Part shown: positions 448 to 61,704 of the stretch, in pieces
How positions within the stretch are numbered: position 1 is the stretch's first letter
Layout of the letters: each line of letters begins with the position of its first letter
DNA from: a virus
Lineage: Duplodnaviria > Heunggongvirae > Uroviricota > Caudoviricetes
Strand: one strand, 5' to 3'
Length of the DNA: 64,000 bases
Virus record (IMG/VR): IMGVR_UViG_3300050821_006962
Coordinates: 27,133 to 91,132 of that record
Translations under genes and position numbers: made by a program
Notes under the pieces: generated by a model
Told to the model about the DNA's origin: nothing
The model's input: the letters and a program-made list of their open reading frames with translations, nothing else
Database searches by the model: none

Positions 448-744
448 TTAAGCCTCTTTTACTTCGTCGACGACGTGAATAACCTCATCGCCGCTTAGCA
501 CGCGCGCTTGGTTATTGGTCATCTTTTGTACTGCTTCTTCGATGTGGGCAAGGTGGTTCGTGAGAAGCGTTTGCATTCCGGCTTCCATCACGTCCATGTG
601 TTTCACCGTGCGATTAAAAAAGTGAGTGATTGCTTCATAAACCCCGCGCGCTTTCCACGACGCCGCGATAAGGGAGCCTACGATTGCAAAGTCTCTAACG
701 GATGATGAAATTTGCCCCAATGTTATGCTGGATGGGTCGAACAT
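448..744 (-). CDS. hypothetical protein
   Basis: ORF track 98 aa, start MFDPSS; tight packing with neighbours. Confidence 0.5.
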   Translation of the reverse strand: MFDPSSITLGQISSSVRDFAIVGSLIAASWKARGVYEAITHFFNRTVKHMDVMEAGMQTLLTNHLAHIEEAVQKMTNNQARVLSGDEVIHVVDEVKEA

Positions 745-2460: not shown

Positions 2461-2483
2461 AAACCCCCTGAATGAGGGGGTTT
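2461..2483 (-). terminator. rho-independent terminator closing the tRNA operon
   Basis: Minus-strand RNA AAACCCCCU-CAUUC-AGGGGGUUU (9 bp stem) followed by UGUAUUUUAC; sits between the last tRNA and the RBS of the next CDS. Confidence 0.7.
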
Positions 2484-2498
2484 CGTTACAATGAATAT

Positions 2499-2573
2499 TG
2501 GTTGCGGCGGGTGGACTCGAACCACCATGAACGCTTTCAGAGAGCGCCATCCTGCCAATTGAATGACATCGCA
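2499..2573 (-). tRNA. tRNA-Gln(CUG)
   Basis: T-arm GGTGG-TTCGAGT-CCACC, anticodon loop CTCTGAA, U1-A72, encoded CCA; one A.C in the acceptor stem. Confidence 0.6.
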
Positions 2574-2672
2574 ACAGAAATAAATGTCGTCCCCACTGGG
2601 GCGATGGGGTCCCTTTTCCTTGGAGGGTCGCTACGCGTTTGCTTTCTCCAAGTACCAGACCGACGACAAGAT

Positions 2673-2748
2673 TGGTTGGGTAAGAAGGATTCGAACCTTC
2701 ACCTGAGTGATTCAAAGTCACCCGTTCTACCAGTTAAACTATCGCCCA
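2673..2748 (-). tRNA. tRNA-Gln(UUG)
   Basis: D arm GTTT-AACTGGTAG-AAC, anticodon loop CTTTGAA, T-arm GAAGG-TTCGAAT-CCTTC, CCA encoded. Confidence 0.6.
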
Positions 2749-2756
2749 ACAGAAAA

Positions 2757-2836
2757 TGGAAGCCTCGAACACGACGCAACGCGTATGACCTTTCGGTTAA
2801 ATGCCGAATGCTCTTATCGCTCTGAGCTACCGAGGC
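2757..2836 (-). tRNA. tRNA-like gene, possible Lys(UUU) pseudogene
   Basis: Classic GCCTCGG-TA-GCTC D-arm start and a perfect acceptor stem, but T-loop TTGCGTC, A33 and a 3' UUCCA; probably degenerate. Confidence 0.35.
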
Positions 2837-2845
2837 ACAGAAAAT

Positions 2846-2919
2846 TGGTCCCAAGTCGTGGAGTCGAACCACGCCTACCAGTGTTTCAAACTGGGGTGCT
2901 ACCCTCACACTCACAGGGG
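2846..2919 (-). tRNA. tRNA-Phe(GAA)
   Basis: Anticodon stem CCAGT/ACTGG with loop TTGAAAC; T-arm CGTGG-TTCGACT-CCACG; CCA. Confidence 0.55.
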
Positions 2920-2920
2920 A

Positions 2921-3005
2921 TGGAGGAAGAGAACAGAATCGAACTGTCGTCCTTTCAGACGGTCGGGTGTTCGAAACCCGTTGCGAGCCATTCGCACTGT
3001 CTTCC
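2921..3005 (-). tRNA. tRNA-Ser(CGA)
   Basis: Type II; anticodon loop TTCGAAC; long variable arm ACCGTCTGAAAGGACG; CCA. Confidence 0.65.
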
Positions 3006-3010
3006 GTAAA

Positions 3011-3099
3011 TGGCGGACTGGTAGACGAATCGAACGCCCCCGTATCTCTACGAGCCTCCGGGTTCAAACCGGATTGCACACCGTTGCGCGGTACCATCC
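3011..3099 (-). tRNA. tRNA-Ser(UGA)
   Basis: Type II; anticodon stem TCCGG/CCGGA with loop TTTGAAC; long variable arm. Confidence 0.6.
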
Positions 3100-3106
3100 A
3101 TAAACT

Positions 3107-3194
3107 TGGCGGATGATGTGAGATTCGAACTCACTCGGGCTTTCACCCGCTGGTTTAGCAAACCAGTACGACACTCCGGCTTCGCCGACCATCC
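3107..3194 (-). tRNA. tRNA-Ser(GCU)
   Basis: Type II; anticodon loop TTGCTAA; T-arm GTGAG-TTCGAAT-CTCAC; acceptor GGATGGT/ATCATCC. Confidence 0.65.
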
Positions 3195-3200
3195 GTAAAC

Positions 3201-3617
3201 TTAAACTCCTAGCATCTTGCTGAGCTGCGCGACGCGCGACTTGGCTCTTTCCAAATCCCCGCTCGCTGCTTTGAATCCGTGATTCGGCTGAAACCCGTTC
3301 AGCCACTTGCACATCAGCTTGCCCCACAGCTTGCCTTCTTGCTGCGCGCGCCAGCTGTGCGTTGAAATCGTTTCGTCCTGCTGGCCTCGAAGAATCGTAA
3401 CATTGAACCAGATATCGAACGCGACCAGCGCTCGATGAGGCCAACCTTCTTTAGATGCCGTCAACTCTTGCGCCGCGACCTGCTGTGCCCCGGCCCACGG
3501 CACATACAGCCCGCGATATTTGTTAATTACACCAAATATGGTGGATACCGCAATCAAGCCGAGAACCGCACCGCTGAAAATTTCGCCAGTCAGCAACAGC
3601 TTATGAAGTGCGTCCAT
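3201..3617 (-). CDS. small membrane protein (N-terminal TM helix)
   Basis: 138 aa ORF inside the tRNA array; AAGAGG RBS 5 nt upstream of the ATG at 3617. Confidence 0.5.
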   Translation of the reverse strand: MDALHKLLLTGEIFSGAVLGLIAVSTIFGVINKYRGLYVPWAGAQQVAAQELTASKEGWPHRALVAFDIWFNVTILRGQQDETISTHSWRAQQEGKLWGKLMCKWLNGFQPNHGFKAASGDLERAKSRVAQLSKMLGV

Positions 3618-3633
3618 CGGAGCCTCTTAAATT

Positions 3634-3706
3634 GGCAGGAAGCGTAGGAGTCGAACCCACTCTCTCCGGGTTGGAGCCGGATGTGCTACCGCAACACTTG
3701 CAACCT
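3634..3706 (-). tRNA. tRNA-Trp(CCA)
   Basis: Anticodon stem TCCGG/CCGGA with loop CTCCAAC; D stem GTGT/GCAC; CCA; two U.U in the acceptor stem. Confidence 0.55.
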
Positions 3707-3769
3707 GTAGAAAATCTGAGCTTCCTATTTCACCGCGTGGCTGGCCGTGTCACAGCCCTTTGGACTCAC

Positions 3770-3880
3770 GTTGAAATCACCCGCTCCCAGTGGGATTCGA
3801 ACTCACACGCGGACACGATGGACGAATGCTGTCTAGGTCAGCACGTACGGACTAAGCCGCCTTCGTATCTACCTCGTACT
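3770..3880 (-). pseudogene. degenerate tRNA-like element
   Basis: T-arm-like GTGAG-TTCGAAT-CCCAC and an anticodon-like hairpin TGCTG-ACCTAGA-CAGCA (would read CUA), but no matching 5' acceptor strand and no CCA. Confidence 0.25.
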
Positions 3881-3951
3881 AGATGCGCCTTGCCGTTCGG
3901 CGTCATGGTCCCTCGCGTTTTTCAGGCGCGAGAGAAAAGAATGGTGGATGA

Positions 3952-4030
3952 TGAGGGATTCGAACTCTCTATGGCCCAAGGGCCAACAGGGTTACAGCCT
4001 GCCGCGCCACTCCAACTGCGCCGCTCATCC
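3952..4030 (-). tRNA. tRNA-Tyr(GUA)
   Basis: Anticodon loop CTGTAAC; long variable arm TGGCCCTTGGGCCAT; CCA. Confidence 0.65.
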
Positions 4031-4035
4031 AAACT

Positions 4036-4109
4036 TGGAGCCTCGTCGAGGAATCGGACCCCGGCGTCCTCTTTACGAAAGAGGCGTCATACCACTAGAC
4101 CAACAAGGC
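4036..4109 (-). tRNA. tRNA-Thr(CGU)
   Basis: Anticodon stem CCTCT/AGAGG with loop TTCGTAA; T-loop TCCGATT; CCA. Confidence 0.6.
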
Positions 4110-4115
4110 AAAAAT

Positions 4116-4191
4116 TGGAGCACCGCATTCGATTCGAACGAATGTGACCGAGGTACAAGCTCGGTATACTGGACCGCTGTATGAGCAGTGC
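4116..4191 (-). tRNA. tRNA-Thr(UGU)
   Basis: D stem ATAC/GTAT; anticodon loop CTTGTAC; T-arm ATTCG-TTCGAAT-CGAAT. Confidence 0.6.
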
Positions 4192-4192
4192 A

Positions 4193-4266
4193 TGGAGCCG
4201 AAGGCAGGAATCGGACCTGCGCTTGTTCTTTACCAAAGAACTGTTCTACCACTATACTACATCGAC
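4193..4266 (-). tRNA. tRNA-Thr(GGU)
   Basis: Anticodon stem GTTCT/AGAAC with loop TTGGTAA; T-arm GCAGG-TCCGATT-CCTGC. Confidence 0.6.
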
Positions 4267-4275
4267 TCAGAAAAT

Positions 4276-4350
4276 TGGAGCGAAGTGCGGGAAGTCGAAC
4301 CCGCGCCTAGACGTTGGCAACGTCTCGTGCTACCATTATACCAACCTCGC
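4276..4350 (-). tRNA. tRNA-Gly(GCC)
   Basis: Anticodon stem AGACG/CGTCT with loop TTGCCAA; CCA. Confidence 0.6.
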
Positions 4351-4358
4351 CCTGAAAC

Positions 4359-4432
4359 TGGAGCGGCGTCACGGACTCGAACCGAGACGAAGAGTTTGGA
4401 AAACTCCAATGCTACCATTACATCAACACCGC
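4359..4432 (-). tRNA. tRNA-Gly(UCC)
   Basis: Anticodon stem GGAGT/ACTCT with loop TTTCCAA; D arm ATGT-AATGGTA-GCAT. Confidence 0.6.
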
Positions 4433-4440
4433 TCAAAACT

Positions 4441-4529
4441 TGGTTGCGCAGAAGGGATTCGAACCCTTGGTGTCCTTTCGGATTCCAGCTTATGAGACTG
4501 GCGACATCGGCCATCTAGTCGACCGCGCA
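4441..4529 (-). tRNA. tRNA-Met/Ile2(CAU) with a 16-nt variable arm
   Basis: Anticodon loop CTCATAA matches elongator Met; acceptor TGCGCGG/CTGCGCA; unusual 16-nt variable region AATCCGAAAGGACACC. Confidence 0.5.
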
Positions 4530-4538
4530 ACAGAAAAA

Positions 4539-4612
4539 TGGTTGACGAGGAGTGAATCGAACACTCTCTTATTCCTTATCAGAGAATCGTCCTGCCGTTA
4601 GACGACTCGTCA
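4539..4612 (-). tRNA. tRNA-Ile(GAU)
   Basis: Perfect acceptor TGACGAG/CTCGTCA; anticodon loop CTGATAA; T-arm GAGTG-TTCGATT-CACTC. Confidence 0.65.
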
Positions 4613-4621
4613 ACTGAAAAT

Positions 4622-4698
4622 TGGTGGACCATAAGGGACTCGAACCCTCATTATTCCTCGGTGCAAGCGAGGTGCCATCCCAATTAGGCGAACGGCCC
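4622..4698 (-). tRNA. tRNA-Ala(UGC)
   Basis: Anticodon stem CCTCG/CGAGG with loop CTTGCAC; the G3.U70 Ala identity pair is present. Confidence 0.65.
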
Positions 4699-4708
4699 AC
4701 AGTAAAAT

Positions 4709-4784
4709 TGGTACTCGCGGCGGGATTTCAACCCGCGTTCTCGCCTTGAAAGGGCGGCGTCCTAGAGCACTAGACGACATGAGC
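4709..4784 (-). tRNA. tRNA-Glu(UUC)
   Basis: Body closely resembles E. coli tRNA-Glu (TC-GTCTAG...CTAGGAC, GCCGCCCTTTCAAGGCG); T-loop TTGAAAT. Confidence 0.6.
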
Positions 4785-4854
4785 ACTGAAACTTCTTGCC
4801 GCCTCCTGTTATCCCGGCCCCTTTCGGACCCCGGGTTTCCTGAACGGCAAAACT

Positions 4855-4928
4855 TGGTAGCGATGGCGAGAATCGAACTCGCGCTACTTGGTTGAGAACC
4901 AAGCGACCTGCCACTAATCGACAACGCC
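4855..4928 (-). tRNA. tRNA-Glu(CUC) (tentative)
   Basis: Anticodon stem CTTGG/CCAAG with loop TTCTCAA; T-arm GCGAG-TTCGATT-CTCGC; CCA. Confidence 0.5.
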
Positions 4929-4930
4929 AT

Positions 4931-5005
4931 TGGTGCCTCGTGGTGGAATCGGACCACCGTCTCAAGTTTATAAGACTTGGGCCTTCGCCATTAGACGAAC
5001 GAGGA
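4931..5005 (-). tRNA. tRNA-Ile(UAU) (tentative)
   Basis: Anticodon stem CAAGT/ACTTG with loop CTTATAA; T-arm GGTGG-TCCGATT-CCACC. Confidence 0.5.
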
Positions 5006-5013
5006 ATAGAAAT

Positions 5014-5089
5014 TGGTACCCAATCAGAGAATCGAACTCTGCCAGCCTCTTTGTAGGAGAGGTTCATACGACCAGTTTGATAATCGGGT
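5014..5089 (-). tRNA. tRNA-Val(UAC)
   Basis: Anticodon stem CCTCT/AGAGG with loop CCTACAA; acceptor ACCCGAT/ATTGGGT. Confidence 0.55.
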
Positions 5090-5171
5090 AGAAAATTTGG
5101 TGACAGTATTGTGTACCGGGGGAATCACCGTGCCCGCCTCTTGCGTTTTTGCTATCGGCTGAGACTGCCGT

Positions 5172-5339
5172 TTATAAATTCGTTTTGTACCAACGCTGGC
5201 CCATCGAAGACCACTGATAAACAATCTTGCAATCTTCGCACTTCACGACAGTCTCGCGGTCGGGTTGAACTTTACCCTCGACATACTTTCCGCACTGACA
5301 CATCAGACCTACAGACCGTGATGTTTTGTGAAGGCTCAT
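5172..5339 (-). CDS. small Zn-ribbon protein (55 aa, CxC...CxxC)
   Basis: MSLHKTSRSVGLMCQCGKYVEG...KCEDCKIVYQW; shares CxCGK...YQW with the ORF at 6041-6181. Confidence 0.35.
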   Translation of the reverse strand: MSLHKTSRSVGLMCQCGKYVEGKVQPDRETVVKCEDCKIVYQWSSMGQRWYKTNL

Positions 5340-5344
5340 AAACT

Positions 5345-5420
5345 TGGTGCATCGCCGGGGACTTGAACCCCGACCTCAGCGCTTAAAAGGCGCGCCATCT
5401 GCCGCTCGATATCGCAATGC
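5345..5420 (-). tRNA. tRNA-Lys(UUU)
   Basis: Anticodon loop CTTTTAA; T-arm CGGGG-TTCAAGT-CCCCG; CCA. Confidence 0.6.
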
Positions 5421-5430
5421 ACTGAAAATT

Positions 5431-5506
5431 TGGTCGACCGCCTCGGACTTGAACCGAGACCGTGTTCCTTAAGAGGGAATCATTCTGCCACTCGAAATCG
5501 CAGTCG
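5431..5506 (-). tRNA. tRNA-Lys(CUU)
   Basis: Anticodon loop CTCTTAA; T-arm CTCGG-TTCAAGT-CCGAG; acceptor CGACTGC/GCGGTCG. Confidence 0.6.
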
Positions 5507-5514
5507 ACTGAATT

Positions 5515-5586
5515 TGGTTGCGCGATAGCCCGGGTTCTGTCTAGGACGAACATTCCTCTGAGCCAGCTACCCGACCTTCATCACGC
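5515..5586 (-). pseudogene. short tRNA-like element (no canonical T-loop)
   Basis: Good acceptor pairing GCGTGAT/ATCGCGC plus ACCA, but only 69 nt and no TTCGA loop. Confidence 0.25.
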
Positions 5587-5869
5587 TCAACAAGCGCTCC
5601 GGTCCTATTTGCTGTTGCATCCGTGTGGAGTGCCTTCGCTTGAATGACTCAGGTATCTACGCTAACATTTCTGCTGCTCTCGCTGAGTACGAAGCCTTAC
5701 CCGTCCGCTTACGCGGCCCGCAACTTCCACGGCACGATGTTGAGTTATGCCCGGAACTTCCTCCAGCGCTTGCGCGCCAGCGTTCGTCTACGCTACCAAA
5801 AAGTAGGCAGTCTTTCGTTGACGCCAGAACGATTCGGCATTTGTGTCTGAACTGTTTCGCCGACAAACT

Positions 5870-5944
5870 TGGAGAACCGGGTCAGAGTCAAACTGACCAA
5901 TAGCGGGTTTGCAATCCGCCGCCTAATCGATTGGCTTCCGATTC
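5870..5944 (-). tRNA. tRNA-Cys(GCA)
   Basis: Anticodon arm GCGGATTGCAAACCCGC, near-identical to the E. coli Cys arm; discriminator U; CCA. Confidence 0.65.
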
Positions 5945-5949
5945 AAACT

Positions 5950-6035
5950 TGGTGCGCGTCGAGGGAGTCGGACCCTCACACCCAAAGGGGTAGCGCGTTT
6001 TAAGTGCGCCGCGTATGCCATTCCGCCACACGCGC
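5950..6035 (-). tRNA. tRNA-Leu(UAA)
   Basis: Type II; anticodon loop CTTAAAA; T-arm GAGGG-TCCGACT-CCCTC; acceptor GCGCGTG/GACGCGC. Confidence 0.65.
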
Positions 6036-6040
6036 AAAGC

Positions 6041-6181
6041 TTACTTGATGACCTCTAGCCACTGATAGCGAGTTCCGCAAGAGCAAGACGCCCAAACTTT
6101 TCTCATGCGATAGCCTGAGATAAATTTCTTGATTCGTCTCTTTACTCGATTAAATTTTTTACCACAAACGCAGGTCATCAT
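6041..6181 (-). CDS. small Zn-ribbon protein (46 aa), paralog of 5172-5339
   Basis: MMTCVCGKKFNRVKRRIKKF...SCSCGTRYQW; internal start of the 97-aa ORF-track entry, whose longer version would overlap tRNAs. Confidence 0.4.
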   Translation of the reverse strand: MMTCVCGKKFNRVKRRIKKFISGYRMRKVWASCSCGTRYQWLEVIK

Positions 6182-6187
6182 AAAACT

Positions 6188-6271
6188 TGGTCGCCCACCA
6201 CGGAGTCGAACCGTGACGCCCGAAGGCACGGGGTTTTGAATCCCGCGCGTCTGCCAGTTCCGCCAGCAGGC
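6188..6271 (-). tRNA. tRNA-Leu(CAA)
   Basis: Type II; anticodon loop TTCAAAA; variable arm TGCCTTCGGGCGT; T-arm CACGG-TTCGACT-CCGTG. Confidence 0.65.
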
Positions 6272-6279
6272 GATAAAAC

Positions 6280-6355
6280 TTGGAGGGCCACCGGGGAGTC
6301 GAACCCCGCTCCTAGCGTTCGTAGCGCTATGCAATTTCCGATATACGAGCAGCCC
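6280..6355 (-). tRNA. tRNA-Arg(ACG)
   Basis: Anticodon stem TAGCG/CGCTA with loop CTACGAA; T-arm CGGGG-TTCGACT-CCCCG. Confidence 0.65.
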
Positions 6356-6445
6356 TCAGAAATCGGAATCGTGTTTGCTCTGAACCACAGAGATTACCGC
6401 GCCTTGCAGCCGAAGCTGGCGAAGGACTTGACGCGACACAAATAT

Positions 6446-6523
6446 TGGAACACTCGGAGAGATTCGAACTCTCTTTGGTACGGGTTAGAACGCCGTTGGG
6501 ATATCCAGTTTCCCGACGAGTGC
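6446..6523 (-). tRNA. tRNA-Arg(UCU)
   Basis: D arm GGGA-AACTGGATA-TCCC; anticodon TTCTAA; T-arm GAGAG-TTCGAAT-CTCTC. Confidence 0.6.
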
Positions 6524-6669
6524 TCAGAAATTTTCGGGGTGCTGACGTGCCCTTAGACCGGAACCTTTTACGCGGGTCCGCACGGAGTGTGTCGCGAATC
6601 ACTTACGCGCTGGCTTAGGCAAGAAGACAGTACTCGTCCGTTCTCTGGCTCACGGAAGCCTTTGCAAAT

Positions 6670-6783
6670 TTACAGCGCGATGATTCGCGCGATGATTGGA
6701 TACTTACGGCAAACCCACAGCAGCACAAAAGGCGCTGCGGATGTGAACGAGACCGCAATCAGATACTTCTCGAAGAAGGTCAT
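6670..6783 (-). CDS. 37-aa hydrophobic membrane peptide
   Basis: GGGAGG RBS 5 nt upstream of the ATG at 6783; MTFFEKYLIAVSFTSAAPFVLLWVCRKYPIIARIIAL. Confidence 0.4.
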   Translation of the reverse strand: MTFFEKYLIAVSFTSAAPFVLLWVCRKYPIIARIIAL

Positions 6784-6844
6784 GAGAACCTCCCTTCTTA
6801 AATTTGGGCCGAGATTACAGCTCGACCCGCTCTACATGCAAACT

Positions 6845-6929
6845 TGGTACCCCGCACAGGAGTCGAACCTGCACGACCGAAGTCACTGGTTCCTAAGACC
6901 AGCGCGTCTCCCAATTCCGCCAACAGGGC
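6845..6929 (-). tRNA. tRNA-Leu(UAG)
   Basis: Type II; anticodon stem CTGGT/ACCAG with loop CTTAGGA; variable arm TGACTTCGGTCGT. Confidence 0.6.
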
Positions 6930-6930
6930 A

Positions 6931-7020
6931 CTGAAAATCTGCCGAGCGTTCTACCATTAAACTACGTGCGAGCAAGCTCACACGGCGGGACTCGAACCCG
7001 CACCTCTCAGCTCATCTGCC
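6931..7020 (-). other. tRNA 3' half followed by a tRNA 5' half (permuted order) joined by a perfect acceptor hairpin
   Basis: Minus RNA reads ...CUGAG-AGGU-GCGGG-UUCGAGU-CCCGC-CGUGUGA-G-CUUGC-UCGCACG-UA-GUUU-AAUGGUAG-AAC-G-CUCGG-CAGAUUUUCAG. The acceptor strands CGUGUGA/UCGCACG pair 7/7; GGCAGAU is duplicated in both halves. Confidence 0.4.
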
Positions 7021-7030
7021 ACCCGAACAA

Positions 7031-7360
7031 ATTGGTGGACTTAATTTCCGGGCGGATTTTATCAGCGCGAGCCGCCGTCCCGCATAGGGCACCTTTAGTG
7101 CCGAGTCCTATTGCCCCAAACCAGCATGCGAGGCCCCGTCAGGGAGCTACCCCGATAGGTTGATGGACTCTGTCGCGACAACATCTCCGTGGTAGGCGTG
7201 CCTTGACGCCTCGTTCCCCTTCGCACTTTCGTGCTCCGGTGTCCGTTCGCTCCCTAGAGAGCCGCGACCTCGCGCGCCCGAAGGCTACAGCCCCGAAGGG
7301 CCTGCGCTGTCCGCGACCCTGCAAGGGTCCGTAGTGGATAACCGAACGGCTCCACAAAAT
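7031..7360 (-). ncRNA. 330-nt GC-rich structured non-coding segment ending ...GUCCACCA
   Basis: No credible ORF; at least 6 perfect hairpins (GGCAC-CTTTA-GTGCC, GACCCT-GCA-AGGGTC, GGCGT-GCCTT-GACGCC, CCCGAAGGG x2, palindrome TGTCGCGACA); sits inside the tRNA operon. Confidence 0.35.
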
Positions 7361-7439
7361 TGGTCGAGAAAGCTGGATTCGAACCAGCGTGCCCTCGCTT
7401 CCGAAGCGAGTGAGATAAGCCAAACTCCTCTATTTCTCG
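7361..7439 (-). tRNA. tRNA-Pro(CGG)
   Basis: Perfect acceptor CGAGAAA/TTTCTCG; anticodon stem CTCGC/GCGAG with loop TTCGGAA; T-arm GCTGG-TTCGAAT-CCAGC. Confidence 0.6.
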
Positions 7440-7449
7440 ACAGTAAAAT

Positions 7450-7537
7450 TGGCTGGGGCAACAGGACTCGAACCTGTAATGAGCGCTAGCTCTGCCTGAT
7501 TAACAGTCAGGTGCTGTACCAATTGAGCCACACCCCA
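7450..7537 (-). tRNA. tRNA-Asn(GUU) with a 17-nt variable arm
   Basis: Anticodon arm CCTGA-CTGTTAA-TCAGG is identical to the E. coli Asn loop; extra hairpin CAGAGCTAGCGCTCATT in the variable region; discriminator G. Confidence 0.5.
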
Positions 7538-7546
7538 GTAGAAAAA

Positions 7547-7621
7547 TGGCGGAGATAACGGGAATCGAACCCGTACTTCATCCGTGACAGGGACGTGTCG
7601 TTACCAACTGACCCTATCTCC
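7547..7621 (-). tRNA. tRNA-Asp(GUC)
   Basis: Perfect acceptor GGAGATA/TATCTCC; anticodon loop CTGTCAC; T-arm ACGGG-TTCGATT-CCCGT. Confidence 0.65.
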
Positions 7622-7630
7622 GCTGAAAAA

Positions 7631-7719
7631 TGGTCGAGATAGAAGGATTCGAACCTCCGGGGCGTTGCCGCACTGGTTTCCAAAACCAGACCGCTACCAA
7701 GCTACGGACCTATACCTCG
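7631..7719 (-). tRNA. tRNA-Pro(UGG) with an expanded D region and a 14-nt variable arm
   Basis: Aligns with E. coli Pro(UGG) (AGCTTGGTAGCG, CTGGT-TTTGGAA-ACCAG, GGAGG-TTCGAAT-CCTTC) but carries insertions. Confidence 0.45.
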
Positions 7720-7833
7720 ACAGAAAATGTATACATCGTAGCAAACGTTTCGAACCGGACGCTTTCGCCACAACGGCAGGCCACGCAATGTAGCCTATGG
7801 TGTTTCACCCTTACGGATGACTTTGACATAGAC

Positions 7834-8031
7834 TCAGCCCACGCTTCTCGCCGAATTAGGCTCGCGAACCTGTAGCGTCTTTTCGGCAATCAGCAAGTAA
7901 ACTTTCGCGCTTTCCTCGACGTCGCCACTTAAGGCTAGGTGGACTATCTGCACGGTACTGACCCGTCGCTGGGCCAAGAAAATTATTGGTTCATTCATAA
8001 GTCGGAAAGCCAGTCGCAGCGGATGCGCCAT
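7834..8031 (-). CDS. hypothetical protein (65 aa)
   Basis: ORF track only; weak RBS. Confidence 0.25.
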   Translation of the reverse strand: MAHPLRLAFRLMNEPIIFLAQRRVSTVQIVHLALSGDVEESAKVYLLIAEKTLQVREPNSARSVG

Positions 8032-8053
8032 ACATTACCGTCCCAGTGCCCCG

Positions 8054-8125
8054 GGAGCTGGTGGGAGTCGAACCCACTCTGCCGCTTTGGTGGACTGTGA
8101 ACCAGCCGACCGCCCCGTGTTCATC
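8054..8125 (-). other. tRNA-like 3' element resembling a tmRNA 3' end (no full cloverleaf)
   Basis: GUGGG-UUCGACU-CCCAC-CAGCUCC, compared with E. coli ssrA GCGGG-UUCAACU-CCCGC-CAGCUCC-ACCA. Only about 40 nt upstream is pairable and no CCA is encoded. Confidence 0.3.
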
Positions 8126-8157
8126 ATGCGGTGATGAGCCGCCCACGGTTTGAACTC

Positions 8158-8349
8158 TTAAACCTTTCTGTGCTCGATTGGCGTGAGGTCTAACGTCGTC
8201 TCCGCGCCGCACTCGCAAACATATCTGTTGCCGGGTCGTCTCCGAACCGGGTCCCCGCATTCGGGGCATGAAATCAGCCGGGGTGGTTGCCCGACTCCGT
8301 TCTTCGCCGGAATCCATATTTCCGTTTCGAACGTTTCCATTGAACCCAT
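8158..8349 (-). CDS. Zn-ribbon protein (CPECG...CECG)
   Basis: ...LISCPECGDPVRRRPGNRYVCECGAETTLD; ATG at 8349 or 8340 lies inside or just after the -10 box of promoter 8348-8376, so it is possibly leaderless. Confidence 0.5.
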   Translation of the reverse strand: MGSMETFETEIWIPAKNGVGQPPRLISCPECGDPVRRRPGNRYVCECGAETTLDLTPIEHRKV

Positions 8350-8376
8350 CCTACCACACTTTCGAAACCTTGTCAA
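8348..8376 (-). promoter_or_regulatory. sigma70-like promoter (TTGACA-17-TAGGAT)
   Basis: Minus strand TTGACA (8371-8376), 17-nt spacer, TAGGAT (8348-8353). Confidence 0.5.
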
Positions 8377-8464
8377 GCTTTATTTTCGGGGCAGCTTTGG
8401 CTCGTGCTAGCTGCCCCTTGGAGGTGCAACTAATGCAAGGTGATGCTACTGCGATTCGAGAACC

Positions 8465-8493
8465 AGTCTAGCACAGTTCTCGAAACTTGTCAA
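8465..8493 (-). promoter_or_regulatory. sigma70-like promoter (TTGACA-17-TAGACT)
   Basis: Same architecture; the flanking sequence TTTCGAgAACtTGTCAAG is repeated from 8348-8376. Confidence 0.45.
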
Positions 8494-8508
8494 GTACTAT
8501 TTTAAACT

Positions 8509-8585
8509 TGGGGTGAAGTACGGGGGTCGAACCCGTGCCGAGGGATTCACAGTCCCCCGTGCTACCTTTACACTAACGACACCAC
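8509..8585 (-). tRNA. tRNA-His(GUG)
   Basis: Anticodon loop CTGTGAA; extra 5' G (G-1) opposite discriminator C73 as expected for His; T-arm ACGGG-TTCGACC-CCCGT. Confidence 0.6.
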
Positions 8586-8680
8586 TGAAAATTTGGCGGT
8601 AATGGTCGCCACCCTCCGAGGCCGGAGATACATCTCCGTTTAAGTAGGGCTAATCGCTACCCTTCCTCGACCGTGGGTGA

Positions 8681-8709
8681 ATCCTACCACACTCGGCGGC
8701 GGATGTCAA
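8681..8709 (-). promoter_or_regulatory. promoter of the tRNA operon (TTGACA-17-TAGGAT)
   Basis: Minus strand TTGACA (8704-8709), 17 nt, TAGGAT (8681-8686); TSS about 8673; the leader contains hairpin CGGAGAUGUAUCUCCG before tRNA-His. Confidence 0.55.
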
Positions 8710-60154: not shown

Positions 60155-60400
60155 ATGAGCGTGGCACAAGATTTGTTTCTCGGTCTGGTCGGCTCGGTCG
60201 AAGCAGGCATCTTGACACCAGAAGAGGCGGTGACCGAACTCGCCGAGTTGAAGCAGGAGTACGGTTTCTATTCGGAGTACACGCTCGAAGACTTCCAACG
60301 GCTTCGAACAAATTATCTCTCCAAGCTGGAATCGGAGGAAGATAACGATTATTACGAAGACGATTTCAGATACGACGAGGATGAAGAGGACGACGAATGA
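60155..60400 (+). CDS. acidic small protein
   Basis: AGGAGG RBS. Confidence 0.5.
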   Translation: MSVAQDLFLGLVGSVEAGILTPEEAVTELAELKQEYGFYSEYTLEDFQRLRTNYLSKLESEEDNDYYEDDFRYDEDEEDDE

Positions 60401-61704
60401 GCTTGCCAAACGAAAAGATGGTCGGGAAGAATTACAACGTGATTGTCCCTGAAACTGGTGTGCCAATCAAAATTTGGAACAAGCACGTTAAGGTTGAGGA
60501 ACAAGCAATTCAACAGCTGAAAGACGTGGCTTCTATGTCTTTTGTGAAGCCTTATGTCGCAGCAATGAGTGATTGCCACTGGGGTATGGGCGCGACGGTC
60601 GGCTCCGTTATCCCGACGGTGGGCGCTGTGATGCCCGCTGCGGTCGGCGTGGATATCGGCTGCGGGATGATGGCTGTCCGCACAAATCTCAAATGGCGAC
60701 AAGCAGCTCCCGAAGACGGAATTTTCGAGATATACGATTACAAGCGCATGTTCGAGGCAATCTCGAAGGCGGTACCGCACGGTCGCACCGACAACGGCGG
60801 CGCGAGAGATATCGGCGGCTGGGGTACGGTCCCGACTGACATCGCAGGAATATGGGAGAAAGAATTCGCCGCGCCTTACGATGAGCTTTGTCGGAAGCAC
60901 CCGGGCGCGTTATCGAAGAATGCGGAGCGCCATCTCGGCACACTCGGCACCGGGAACCACTTCATCGAGGTCTGCACCGAAATCGACAACCCGGACTCTA
61001 ACCTTTGGGTGGTCATCCACTCCGGCTCTCGCGGACTGGGCAATCGCATCGGCACATATTTCACCAAGCTGGCCGGAGACCTTTGCAAGACGTGGGGCGT
61101 CCAGCTCCCGAACAAGGACCTCGGGTATCTCCCGGTCGGCACCAGTCAGTACGACGATTACATCACGGCGATTACGCTGGCGCAGAAGTTTGCGTGGCAC
61201 AATCGCATCATCATGATGGAGCGCGTGCTGAAAGCTATCGGTGCAGAGCAGGATGGTAACGAGCAAATTGACGGCTTCAATGTCACTCCCTCGATTATCC
61301 ACATGCACCATAACTATATGACACAGATTTGCTTCGGCGGTCTTGACATCAACCTGACTCGCAAGGGCGCGGTCGACGCGAGCCACGGCAATTGGGTCAT
61401 CATCCCCGGTTCGATGGGCGCGAAGACCTACATCGCTCGCGGGCTGGGCAACAAGGAATCGTTCTGCTCTTGCTCCCACGGCGCAGGCCGCGCAATGAGC
61501 CGAACGCAGGCTTTGAAGACGTTCACGGTCGGGGACCACGAGGCGGCAACGGCAGGCGTGTACTGCGACAAGACACGCGCCGTGCTCGACGAAACGCCAG
61601 CCGCGTACAAAGACATCGATGCGGTGATGGAATCGCAGCGCGACCTAGTTGAGCCCGTTTTGAAAATCAAGCAGTTGGTATGTGTCAAAGGATTGAGCGA
61701 TTAA
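60397..61704 (+). CDS. rtcB: RtcB RNA 3'-phosphate/5'-OH ligase
   Basis: SHGAGRAMSR and His-rich metal-binding motifs; RtcB-like length. Confidence 0.65.
   Translation: MSLPNEKMVGKNYNVIVPETGVPIKIWNKHVKVEEQAIQQLKDVASMSFVKPYVAAMSDCHWGMGATVGSVIPTVGAVMPAAVGVDIGCGMMAVRTNLKWRQAAPEDGIFEIYDYKRMFEAISKAVPHGRTDNGGARDIGGWGTVPTDIAGIWEKEFAAPYDELCRKHPGALSKNAERHLGTLGTGNHFIEVCTEIDNPDSNLWVVIHSGSRGLGNRIGTYFTKLAGDLCKTWGVQLPNKDLGYLPVGTSQYDDYITAITLAQKFAWHNRIIMMERVLKAIGAEQDGNEQIDGFNVTPSIIHMHHNYMTQICFGGLDINLTRKGAVDASHGNWVIIPGSMGAKTYIARGLGNKESFCSCSHGAGRAMSRTQALKTFTVGDHEAATAGVYCDKTRAVLDETPAAYKDIDAVMESQRDLVEPVLKIKQLVCVKGLSD

Follow-up and report, generated by a model that had tools for sequence, protein, structure and literature searches.

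A 64,000-nucleotide stretch of phage DNA (hereafter the window, corresponding to positions 27,133-91,132 of IMG/VR record IMGVR_UViG_3300050821_006962) contains, within an array of transfer RNA (tRNA) genes, a GC-rich segment at positions 7031-7360 that an initial annotation had interpreted as a single structured RNA of roughly that size. According to that interpretation the RNA would end in a tRNA-like CCA terminus, and would either resemble transfer-messenger RNA (tmRNA), RNase P RNA or an intron, or represent a novel small phage RNA processed together with the tRNAs. Comparison across related phages supported the last of these proposals, at a reduced size: as judged from covariation, the 3′ part of the segment (window positions ~7048-7186, on the tRNA strand) is a non-coding structured RNA of about 140-150 nucleotides, termed here the ‘core’. 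The core is a new RNA family among a known kind, the stable structured RNAs of phage tRNA islands, and it is probably cut out with the tRNAs to form symmetric dimers or larger assemblies.

Relatives and fold of the conserved core

Searches for DNA relatives among 50,697 isolated phages returned tRNA matches only, a neighbouring 285-residue protein had no relatives in IMG/VR and is not itself on record, an exact 25-mer of the segment’s 5′ domain had no match, and PHROGs and Pfam returned almost nothing for the neighbouring open reading frames (ORFs). A RecT-like protein encoded 7 kb away led to two IMG/VR contigs, among them L001, in which a syntenic gap between tRNA-Pro(CGG) and tRNA-Leu(UAG) shares sequence blocks with the segment. 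Search patterns derived from those blocks were run over IMG/VR, JGI metagenomes and GTDB genomes and, combined with a covariance model (R1), placed the core in at least 16 distinct phage or metagenome contigs (the window, L001, L006, L013, L016, L070, L109, L135, L138, L139, L140, L142, L149, L150, L151 and L154). Model R1 matched the window at 7038-7186 with 147.7 bits (E 1e-45) and 14 other contigs with 55-166 bits; the sixteenth member, L154, emerged from a pattern in which the P3 loop was left free. A tRNA array surrounds the core in all 16 members found, and in most of them the core lies just 5′ of tRNA-Leu(UAG).

Several candidates did not enter the family. L134 and L136 matched a pattern and not the model, and were regarded as chance or partial matches; the pattern AAGCGCG..CGCGCGNTGAT proved too GC-palindromic, and among the matches listed yielded mostly unrelated GC-rich phages, plus L070, L122, L109 and L124; and L002, a protein-level relative of this phage, contained no core copy in the 21 kb examined. 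One accepted member, L151 (CABMCB010000038.1), is filed as ‘uncultured archaeon isolate LFW-28’, yet has this phage-type tRNA array together with the RNase P RNA and the core, and is probably a misbinned phage contig.

The fold of the core and its conservation were demonstrated by covariation across these relatives, with pairs counted from a 15-sequence alignment fitted to the model. The elements of the fold, in window coordinates, are as follows.

7038-7186, minus strand: whole core, as matched by the covariance model
7103-7170, minus strand: three-way junction P2/P3/P4, supported by covariation
7164-7170 with 7103-7109, minus strand: P2, enclosing P3 and P4; 7 pairs, 5 compensatory, 100% of alignment cells paired
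7140-7154, minus strand: P3, with loop UAGCU; 9 pairs, 5 compensatory
7113-7134, minus strand: P4; 5 pairs, 3 compensatory
7088-7102, minus strand: P5 hairpin GGCAC-UAAAG-GUGCC, abutting the 3′ strand of P2; 6 pairs, 4 compensatory, 97.6% of cells paired
7051-7083, minus strand: H-type pseudoknot of stems S1 and S2
7079-7083 with 7067-7071, minus strand: S1; 5 pairs, 2 compensatory
7072-7076 (inside the S1 loop) with 7051-7055, minus strand: S2, in seven complementary versions
7056-7066, minus strand: A-rich pseudoknot loop L3, GCUGAUAAAAU

Across this alignment 95.4% of cells were paired, as compared with 79% after shuffling, and compensatory changes were observed in 19 of the 32 pairs of the core model. 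None of 500 shuffles matched any observed pairing measure, and sliding the partners by 1-3 columns left 32-58% paired. The versions of S2 (GGCGG/CCGCC, GGCGA/UCGCC, GGUGG/CCACC, GGGGGC/GCUCCU, GGAGCA/UGCUCC, AGGGAC/GUCCCU and CCCGG/CCGGG) illustrate the extent of this change, as does L154, in which the fold persists with CCCAG/CUGGG as an altered P3 stem around the loop CUAGCUA. Unpaired nucleotides that are invariant in the core comprise ACAGA, UAGCU and UGAUAAA. The folded strand is the tRNA sense strand, because the roughly 30 G-U cells in the core helices (including one P4 pair that is U-G in 12 of 15 sequences) would turn into A-C mismatches if the opposite strand were folded. A closing helix proposed by RNAalifold (CAAC/GUUG) was mismatched in at least four members and was dropped. 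Folding energy alone is weak evidence for structure in the segment (z = -2.0 for the minus strand, with 2 of 100 shuffles folding equally well; z = +0.4 for the plus strand), and it is the covariation across relatives that establishes structure beyond chance in the 3′ 150 nucleotides.

The sequence features originally listed (hairpins, palindrome, repeated stems, CCA and trailer) are all present on the minus strand at 7031-7360, and the GC-rich character is likewise evident, with a G+C fraction of 0.64 at 7051-7350 that is the maximum of the first 12 kb (~0.53 in the surroundings). Protein coding is excluded, since the ORFs in the segment are only short and overlapping and no frame open through the conserved part was found in all relatives. 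Rfam 15 recognised the tRNAs and the RNase P RNA at gathering thresholds and nothing in the segment, a permissive scan of 6900-7480 assigned no family within 7031-7360 at E<=10, and the core had no Rfam match in 12 related loci at E<=5 or E<=0.001. The proposal of a novel small phage RNA within the tRNA operon was borne out, as was the presence of a conserved fold in the 3′ part of the segment; the assumption that all 330 nucleotides form one molecule was not.

Self-complementary sites and the proposed working of the core

Two of the sites within the core that can pair with a second copy of themselves are located as follows.

7171-7180, minus strand: 5′ palindrome UGUCGCGACA, just upstream of P2
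7120-7129, minus strand: P4 loop, GCAUGC (7124-7129) followed by UGGU (7120-7123)

The first coincides with the 10-base-pair palindrome TGTCGCGACA at 7171-7180. Relatives carry GUUGCAAC or GUUGUACAAC at the same position, often extended to 10-12 nucleotides, and self-complementarity survives both a U-A to C-G double change and the insertion of a central UA; the predicted energy of the self-duplex ranges from -9.7 to -16.5 kcal/mol. In the P4 loop, the first six nucleotides are palindromic in 13 of 13 main-clade members, which between them display six different hexamers (GUCGAC, GUGCAC, GCAUGC, GCUAGC, GCGCGC and CCUAGG) with double changes in each of the three symmetric pairs of columns. At the centre, two neighbouring columns alternate between AU, CG, GC and UA, and neighbours in one chain are unable to pair with each other. 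The same pattern was presented by Kretsch et al. as evidence for symmetric intermolecular kissing loops in the OLE (L9.3) and GOLLD (L21a) RNAs, where those loops are directly visible in cryo-electron microscopy structures (PMC12286853). A second copy of each hexamer elsewhere in the loci was sought as a possible hetero-partner in the array, and none recurs, which favours pairing of the P4 loop with itself. The P3 loop also contains a palindrome, AGCU (UAGCUA in L154), and the conserved UGGU beside the P4 hexamer (UGGUA in 8 members, UGGUU in the window and L150) is complementary to the ACCA 3′ end of 17 of the 29 phage tRNAs.

The position of the core points to its co-transcription and processing with the tRNAs. 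All 29 tRNA genes in the window (2499-8582, identified with ARAGORN) lie on the minus strand, and the segment was confirmed to lie within that operon and on that strand, between complete genes for tRNA-Pro(CGG) (7361-7439) and tRNA-Leu(UAG) (6845-6929). Three sigma-70-like promoters with an extended -10 (TTGACA-17-TAGGAT/TAGACT) are found upstream of the array at 8348-8709, minus strand, and a terminator-like hairpin directly follows the last tRNA at 2464-2479, minus strand; these predicted signals outline a tRNA transcription unit of ~6 kb, and for that reason co-transcription of the core is most likely. On the minus strand, the segment begins with an AUUUUG spacer immediately after the CCA of tRNA-Pro, and its 3′ end reads ...AAGUCCACCA-AUUUG at 7041-7029. 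The likeness of that trailer to those of the flanking tRNAs, previously remarked upon, extends to the entire array (an encoded CCA followed by A(U/G)UUU in 29 of 29 window tRNAs), and an AUUU-type spacer is also found 3′ of the core in relatives.

In the mechanism that is favoured here, the core would be transcribed within the ~6-kb operon and released in the same manner as its neighbours, by RNase P cleavage at the 5′ end of the next tRNA, together with cutting or trimming within the AUUU-type spacer behind each module. Covariation of the palindromes suggests that released copies would then associate, by symmetric kissing of the P4 loop and through an 8-12-base-pair intermolecular duplex of the 5′ palindrome, which could stack on P2 of both partners; the AGCU of the P3 loop may supply a third contact. 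The outcome would be a dimer or a larger symmetric assembly. A role in handling or protecting the phage tRNA pool during infection is a guess, held with low confidence, and is favoured because the phage also encodes the RNA ligase RtcB, its own RNase P RNA and a tRNA mimic. A more elaborate version, which appears rather unlikely, describes the core as a compact counterpart of the larger ROOL and GOLLD RNAs. There, the 5′ palindrome, the P3 AGCU and the P4 hexamer would lie on different two-fold axes and generate a closed multimer instead of a simple dimer, UGGU would capture tRNA 3′ ends by analogy with T-box RNAs and RNase P L15, and the core, a reduced RNase P RNA, a YrlA-like mimic and RtcB would constitute a kit that guards the tRNA supply against host tRNA-targeting defences.

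Several observations weigh against the proposal of a self-associating core. None of the tests made indicates a specific cellular function, the members come solely from uncultivated phages, and an alignment fitted to a model favours that model’s own structure. Most search patterns fixed GGGTAGCTCCC and ACAGA, such that the invariance of the P3 loop and of ACAGA is partly an ascertainment effect (L070, L109 and L154 were found without the GGGTAGCTCCC requirement). The 5′ palindrome is known in three versions only, corresponding to few independent changes; and the L109/L135/L139 clade replaces the palindromic P4 loop by an ordinary hairpin, with the rest of the fold kept, so that the kissing loop is not universal.

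That same clade is compatible with an RNA that works as a monomer and binds a phage or host protein, as its scaffold or decoy; the palindromes would then be incidental or reflect binding by a protein dimer. Function within a ribonucleoprotein is common among structured bacterial RNAs, the phage encodes RtcB, and the neighbouring module resembles YrlA, a partner of Ro60 (PMC4201824). A specific protein site would be expected to keep its sequence, however, whereas the six unrelated P4 hexamers share self-complementarity only; no protein gene consistently adjoins the core, whose neighbours are tRNAs; and none of the 20 largest window ORFs contained a Ro60/TROVE domain, in a phage genome that extends past the window. 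This explanation is accordingly considered doubtful. It is unlikely that the core is instead a cis-acting leader that guides or delays RNase P or RNase E during maturation of tRNA-Leu(UAG), and is not a free-standing RNA. The core does end 8-16 nucleotides before that tRNA in L006, L013, L070, L140, L150 and L154, and the phage carries its own reduced RNase P RNA, but 50-300 nucleotides of other modules separate the two in the window, L001, L016, L138, L142 and L149, and L109, L135 and L139 lack any following tRNA-Leu. The adjacency may be plain synteny, given that gene order in these arrays is generally conserved. Self-cleaving ribozymes of the hepatitis delta virus (HDV)-like ‘theta’ type occur in phage tRNA regions, and a compact pseudoknotted fold with invariant unpaired ACAGA, UAGCU and UGAUAAA might suggest a new ribozyme that cuts the polycistronic tRNA precursor. 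No Rfam ribozyme family matches the core, however, and no cleavage site can be inferred from it; with 0 nucleotides between S2-5′ and S1-3′ the pseudoknot lacks the P3, L3 and P1.1 elements of the HDV fold (a nested double pseudoknot with a catalytic C in J4/2), and by our own reading against the known topology it does not fit the pistol arrangement either, which renders this explanation very unlikely.

An action of the palindromes and hairpins at the level of DNA, as an operator, a replication or packaging site or a homing-endonuclease target, is extremely improbable. Palindromes are typical of protein-binding DNA sites, and some related arrays contain inserted ORFs that are homing-endonuclease-like (in L070, for example, one immediately precedes the core), but many G-U pairs in the helices work on one strand only, the palindrome sequences change freely, the pseudoknot covaries (which is meaningless in duplex DNA), and the element is always sense-oriented in tRNA transcription units. 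It is scarcely credible, finally, that a divergent tmRNA, RNase P RNA or intron accounts for the segment, despite its pseudoknot and, in this phage, a CCA with a tRNA-type trailer. No model of these families matches it at E<=10, both flanking tRNAs are intact (with no group I or II intron match), and the CCA is not conserved. The tmRNA suggestion was contradicted by the absence of any ARAGORN report of a tmRNA or tag frame in the window or of a frame conserved across members, and by the absence of a T-arm upstream of GUCCACCA, the CCA instead being part of a hairpin that lacks CCA in relatives. For RNase P, the core displays a local 16-nucleotide likeness to J11/12 of the Escherichia coli RNA (GUGCAACAGAGAGCAAAC in E. 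coli, GUUGCAACAGAGAGUCAAAC in the core), and CGGGUAGCU also occurs in the phage’s own RNase P RNA, which is a separate gene at 5510-5799. No member of the RNase P clan matched 6900-7480 at E<=10, and model R1 finds nothing in E. coli rnpB. A split RNase P specificity domain, or double T-loop binder of the tRNA elbow, was also considered and rejected: the signature of that module, which also forms the T-box Stem I apex and the L1 stalk, is an unpaired AGNNA...UGNNA (PMC3664808), which the core lacks because its AGAGA is Watson-Crick paired in P2 and covaries with the 3′ strand (the fifth position being U in the window and G in L070).

Modules of the segment and the surrounding array

The self-associating core proposed above occupies only part of the segment. 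Because conservation differs by part across relatives, with only the 3′ ~140-150 nucleotides (7038-7186 by the covariance-model match) present in all members, the 330 nucleotides are, by this comparison, a composite of modules and not one evolutionary unit, and the CCA end is not a conserved terminus. The remaining modules and the adjoining one are as follows.

7334-7355, minus strand: hairpin H1, GUGGA-GCC-GUUC-GGU-UA-UCCAC, the first element after the AUUUUG spacer, read from sequence
7189-7355, minus strand: lineage-specific 5′ accessory domain of ~165 nucleotides, consisting of H1 and GC-rich hairpins, with covariation assessed for H1
7315-7330, 7287-7303, 7276-7285 and 7223-7234, minus strand: accessory-domain hairpins capped by UUCG or GAAA loops
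7241-7247, minus strand: AACGGAC, in the accessory domain
7189-7216, minus strand: GAACGAGGCG-loop-CGCCUACCAC, in the accessory domain
7019-7038, minus strand: hairpin CCACC-AAUUUGUUCG-GGUGG, which holds the string ‘GUCCACCA-AUUUG’ and opens the downstream YrlA-like module
6930-7022, minus strand: YrlA-like module, just 3′ of the segment and optional across members
6985-7001, minus strand: T-arm of the YrlA-like module, read from sequence
6966-6983, minus strand: closed acceptor-like stem of that module, 8 base pairs closed by UU
6948-6963, minus strand: D-arm of that module

The accessory domain, which includes two CCCGAAGG-type UUCG hairpins at 7276-7303, is found in 5 of the 16 members (the window, L138 in nearly identical form, L001, L150 and L149, where it is cut by the contig end), is reduced to H1 alone in L140, and is absent from L006, L016, L142, L013, L070, L151, L154 and the remaining members; a variable insert of 0-110 nucleotides separates it from the core. 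H1 itself occurs in L138, L001, L150 and L140, the last of which displays changes that preserve pairing (GAUGGA/UCCAUC and ACC/GGU). An acceptor-like pairing of the segment’s 5′ GUGGA with its 3′ UCCAC was rejected, as GUGGA pairs locally in H1 (supported by the changes in L140) and UCCAC is part of the covarying downstream hairpin. The 3′ end of the accessory domain, CGCCUACCAC (7189-7198, minus strand), contains UACCA, which is complementary to the P4-loop UGGUA of relatives (window site 7119-7123, minus strand) and is also the 3′ end of several of this phage’s tRNAs; on the basis of that match it could serve as a cis mimic of a tRNA 3′ end.

The supposed tRNA-like terminus proved to belong to the next module. 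The string GUCCACCA-AUUUGUUCG-GGUGG folds as a hairpin, the stem of which covaries (CCAGC/GCUGG in L138 and L149, CUCGC/GCGAG in L001 and L142) and the loop of which lacks CCA in those relatives, indicating that the GUCCACCA end supplies the 5′ side of a covarying stem and is not kept in relatives. Cleavage within that loop may nevertheless occur in this particular phage, where its sequence resembles a tRNA trailer.

Some phages are known to encode YrlA RNAs. The module that follows the segment matches the Rfam YrlA model at 6922-7022 with 32.7 bits (E 2.8e-5), short of the gathering score of 69, in an alignment whose basal stem runs into tRNA-Leu. Its arms, as read from the sequence, follow the permuted YrlA order of T-arm, closed acceptor-like stem and D-arm (PMC4201824), a likeness that concerns the neighbour of the core and not the core. 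A permuted tmRNA was considered for this neighbour and rejected, as a coding piece would not fit ahead of tRNA-Leu and ARAGORN gives no call there. Some relatives lack the unit ‘UUAAGUC-hairpin-GGCRGAAGAG-T-arm...’, and a tandem pair of it follows the cores of L138 and L142; it has the look of an RNA module that is mobile or duplicating.

A class A RNase P RNA gene lies within the same array (5510-5799, minus strand; 102 bits with Rfam), and relatives encode counterparts with 66-98 bits at L001 3228-3487, L006 5996-6304, L013 5797-6123, L070 6248-6561, L140 1674-1954, L149 1441-1765, L151 1222-1559 and L142 8485-8598 (cut). The gene adjoins tRNA-Lys on one side and tRNA-Cys or tRNA-Leu on the other, and its RNA is short (~290 nucleotides), with a specificity domain that consists of P10/11 and one long hairpin and lacks the J11/12-J12/13 module as well as P13/P14. 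A ‘tmRNA’ called by ARAGORN in three relatives (L006 5794-6091, L070 6046-6343 and L122 9449-9746; tag AADASGSNGAF) overlaps two tRNA-Lys genes and part of this RNase P RNA, and is almost certainly a false positive.

Additional observations concern the surrounding arrays. In L070 (~7750-8240, minus strand) and likewise in L122, tRNA-Asn and the core are separated by a coding-looking insert with a DHNH...C..C-type motif, possibly a homing endonuclease of HNH/EndoVII-like type; this insert shows the 5′ boundary of the core to lie at the palindrome. Further slots of ~100-160 nucleotides in related arrays (L006 7779-7886, minus strand; L109 ~545-705, plus strand; L135 ~6165-6270, plus strand) share a terminal ...GA(G/A)AGGCCCAAA(U/C)UUU motif and are probably additional small RNAs. 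Between tRNA-Leu(UAG) and tRNA-Arg(UCU), within the tRNA array of the window, a hydrophobic peptide, MTFFEKYLIAVSFTSAAPFVLLWVCRKYPIIARIIAL, is specified by a 37-codon ORF (6783-6670, minus strand) that has GGGAGG as its ribosome-binding site. The RtcB gene (60397-61704, plus strand; Pfam PF01139, 355 bits) fits a theme of tRNA supply and repair.

Comparison with known RNA systems

Phage tRNA islands are known to harbour puzzling RNAs, among them two small stable RNAs of phage T4, species 1 and species 2, that have lacked an explanation for decades. These RNAs (rnaC and rnaD, 139 and 119 nucleotides) resemble the core in size and in their location on the tRNA strand of a tRNA cluster (NC_000866), and rnaC differs from it in possessing a T-arm-like 3′ end; they are not homologous to the core, and model R1, with filters off, scored at most 4.5 bits on the correct strand of the T4 tRNA region. 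The resemblance to RNase P RNA is confined to short local similarities with J11/12 and L15 (GCAACAGAGAG..CAAAC and CGGGUAGCU), the nucleotides of which reside in the covarying P2 and P3 of the core and not in T-loops or an internal loop, and the RNase P and core covariance models do not match in either direction.

The OLE RNA is bacterial, not phage-borne, ~600 nucleotides in length and works with proteins at the membrane, and it shares no homology with the core. Its loop L9.3 nevertheless forms a symmetric loop-loop contact with an internal palindrome that switches between self-complementary versions, as in the core, and one reported version, AGCU (PMC12286853), is also the centre of the invariant P3 loop.

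ROOL and GOLLD, which have recently been reported to form RNA-only cages, are closer in setting: like the core they are phage-encoded, often located in or beside tRNA islands, and pseudoknotted. They are considerably larger (~580 and >800 nucleotides, as compared with ~140-150), and neither the window (at E<=10) nor any of 12 related loci matched their Rfam models. Both form homo-oligomers through kissing loops, backed by covariation of loop palindromes (PMC12286853), which is the kind of pattern from which oligomerisation of the core is predicted here. The phage RNase P RNA and tRNA mimics in the same arrays point to a broader, unexplored RNA toolset of this phage group, within which the core, being small and easy to synthesise, mutate and image, could serve as a tractable model for self-assembling RNAs beside phage tRNAs. 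It represents a much smaller (~150 nucleotides) RNA family from the niche of ROOL and GOLLD, with a pseudoknotted fold backed by covariation, and its candidate self-pairing signatures are of a type that proved right as predictors of quaternary contacts in OLE and GOLLD.

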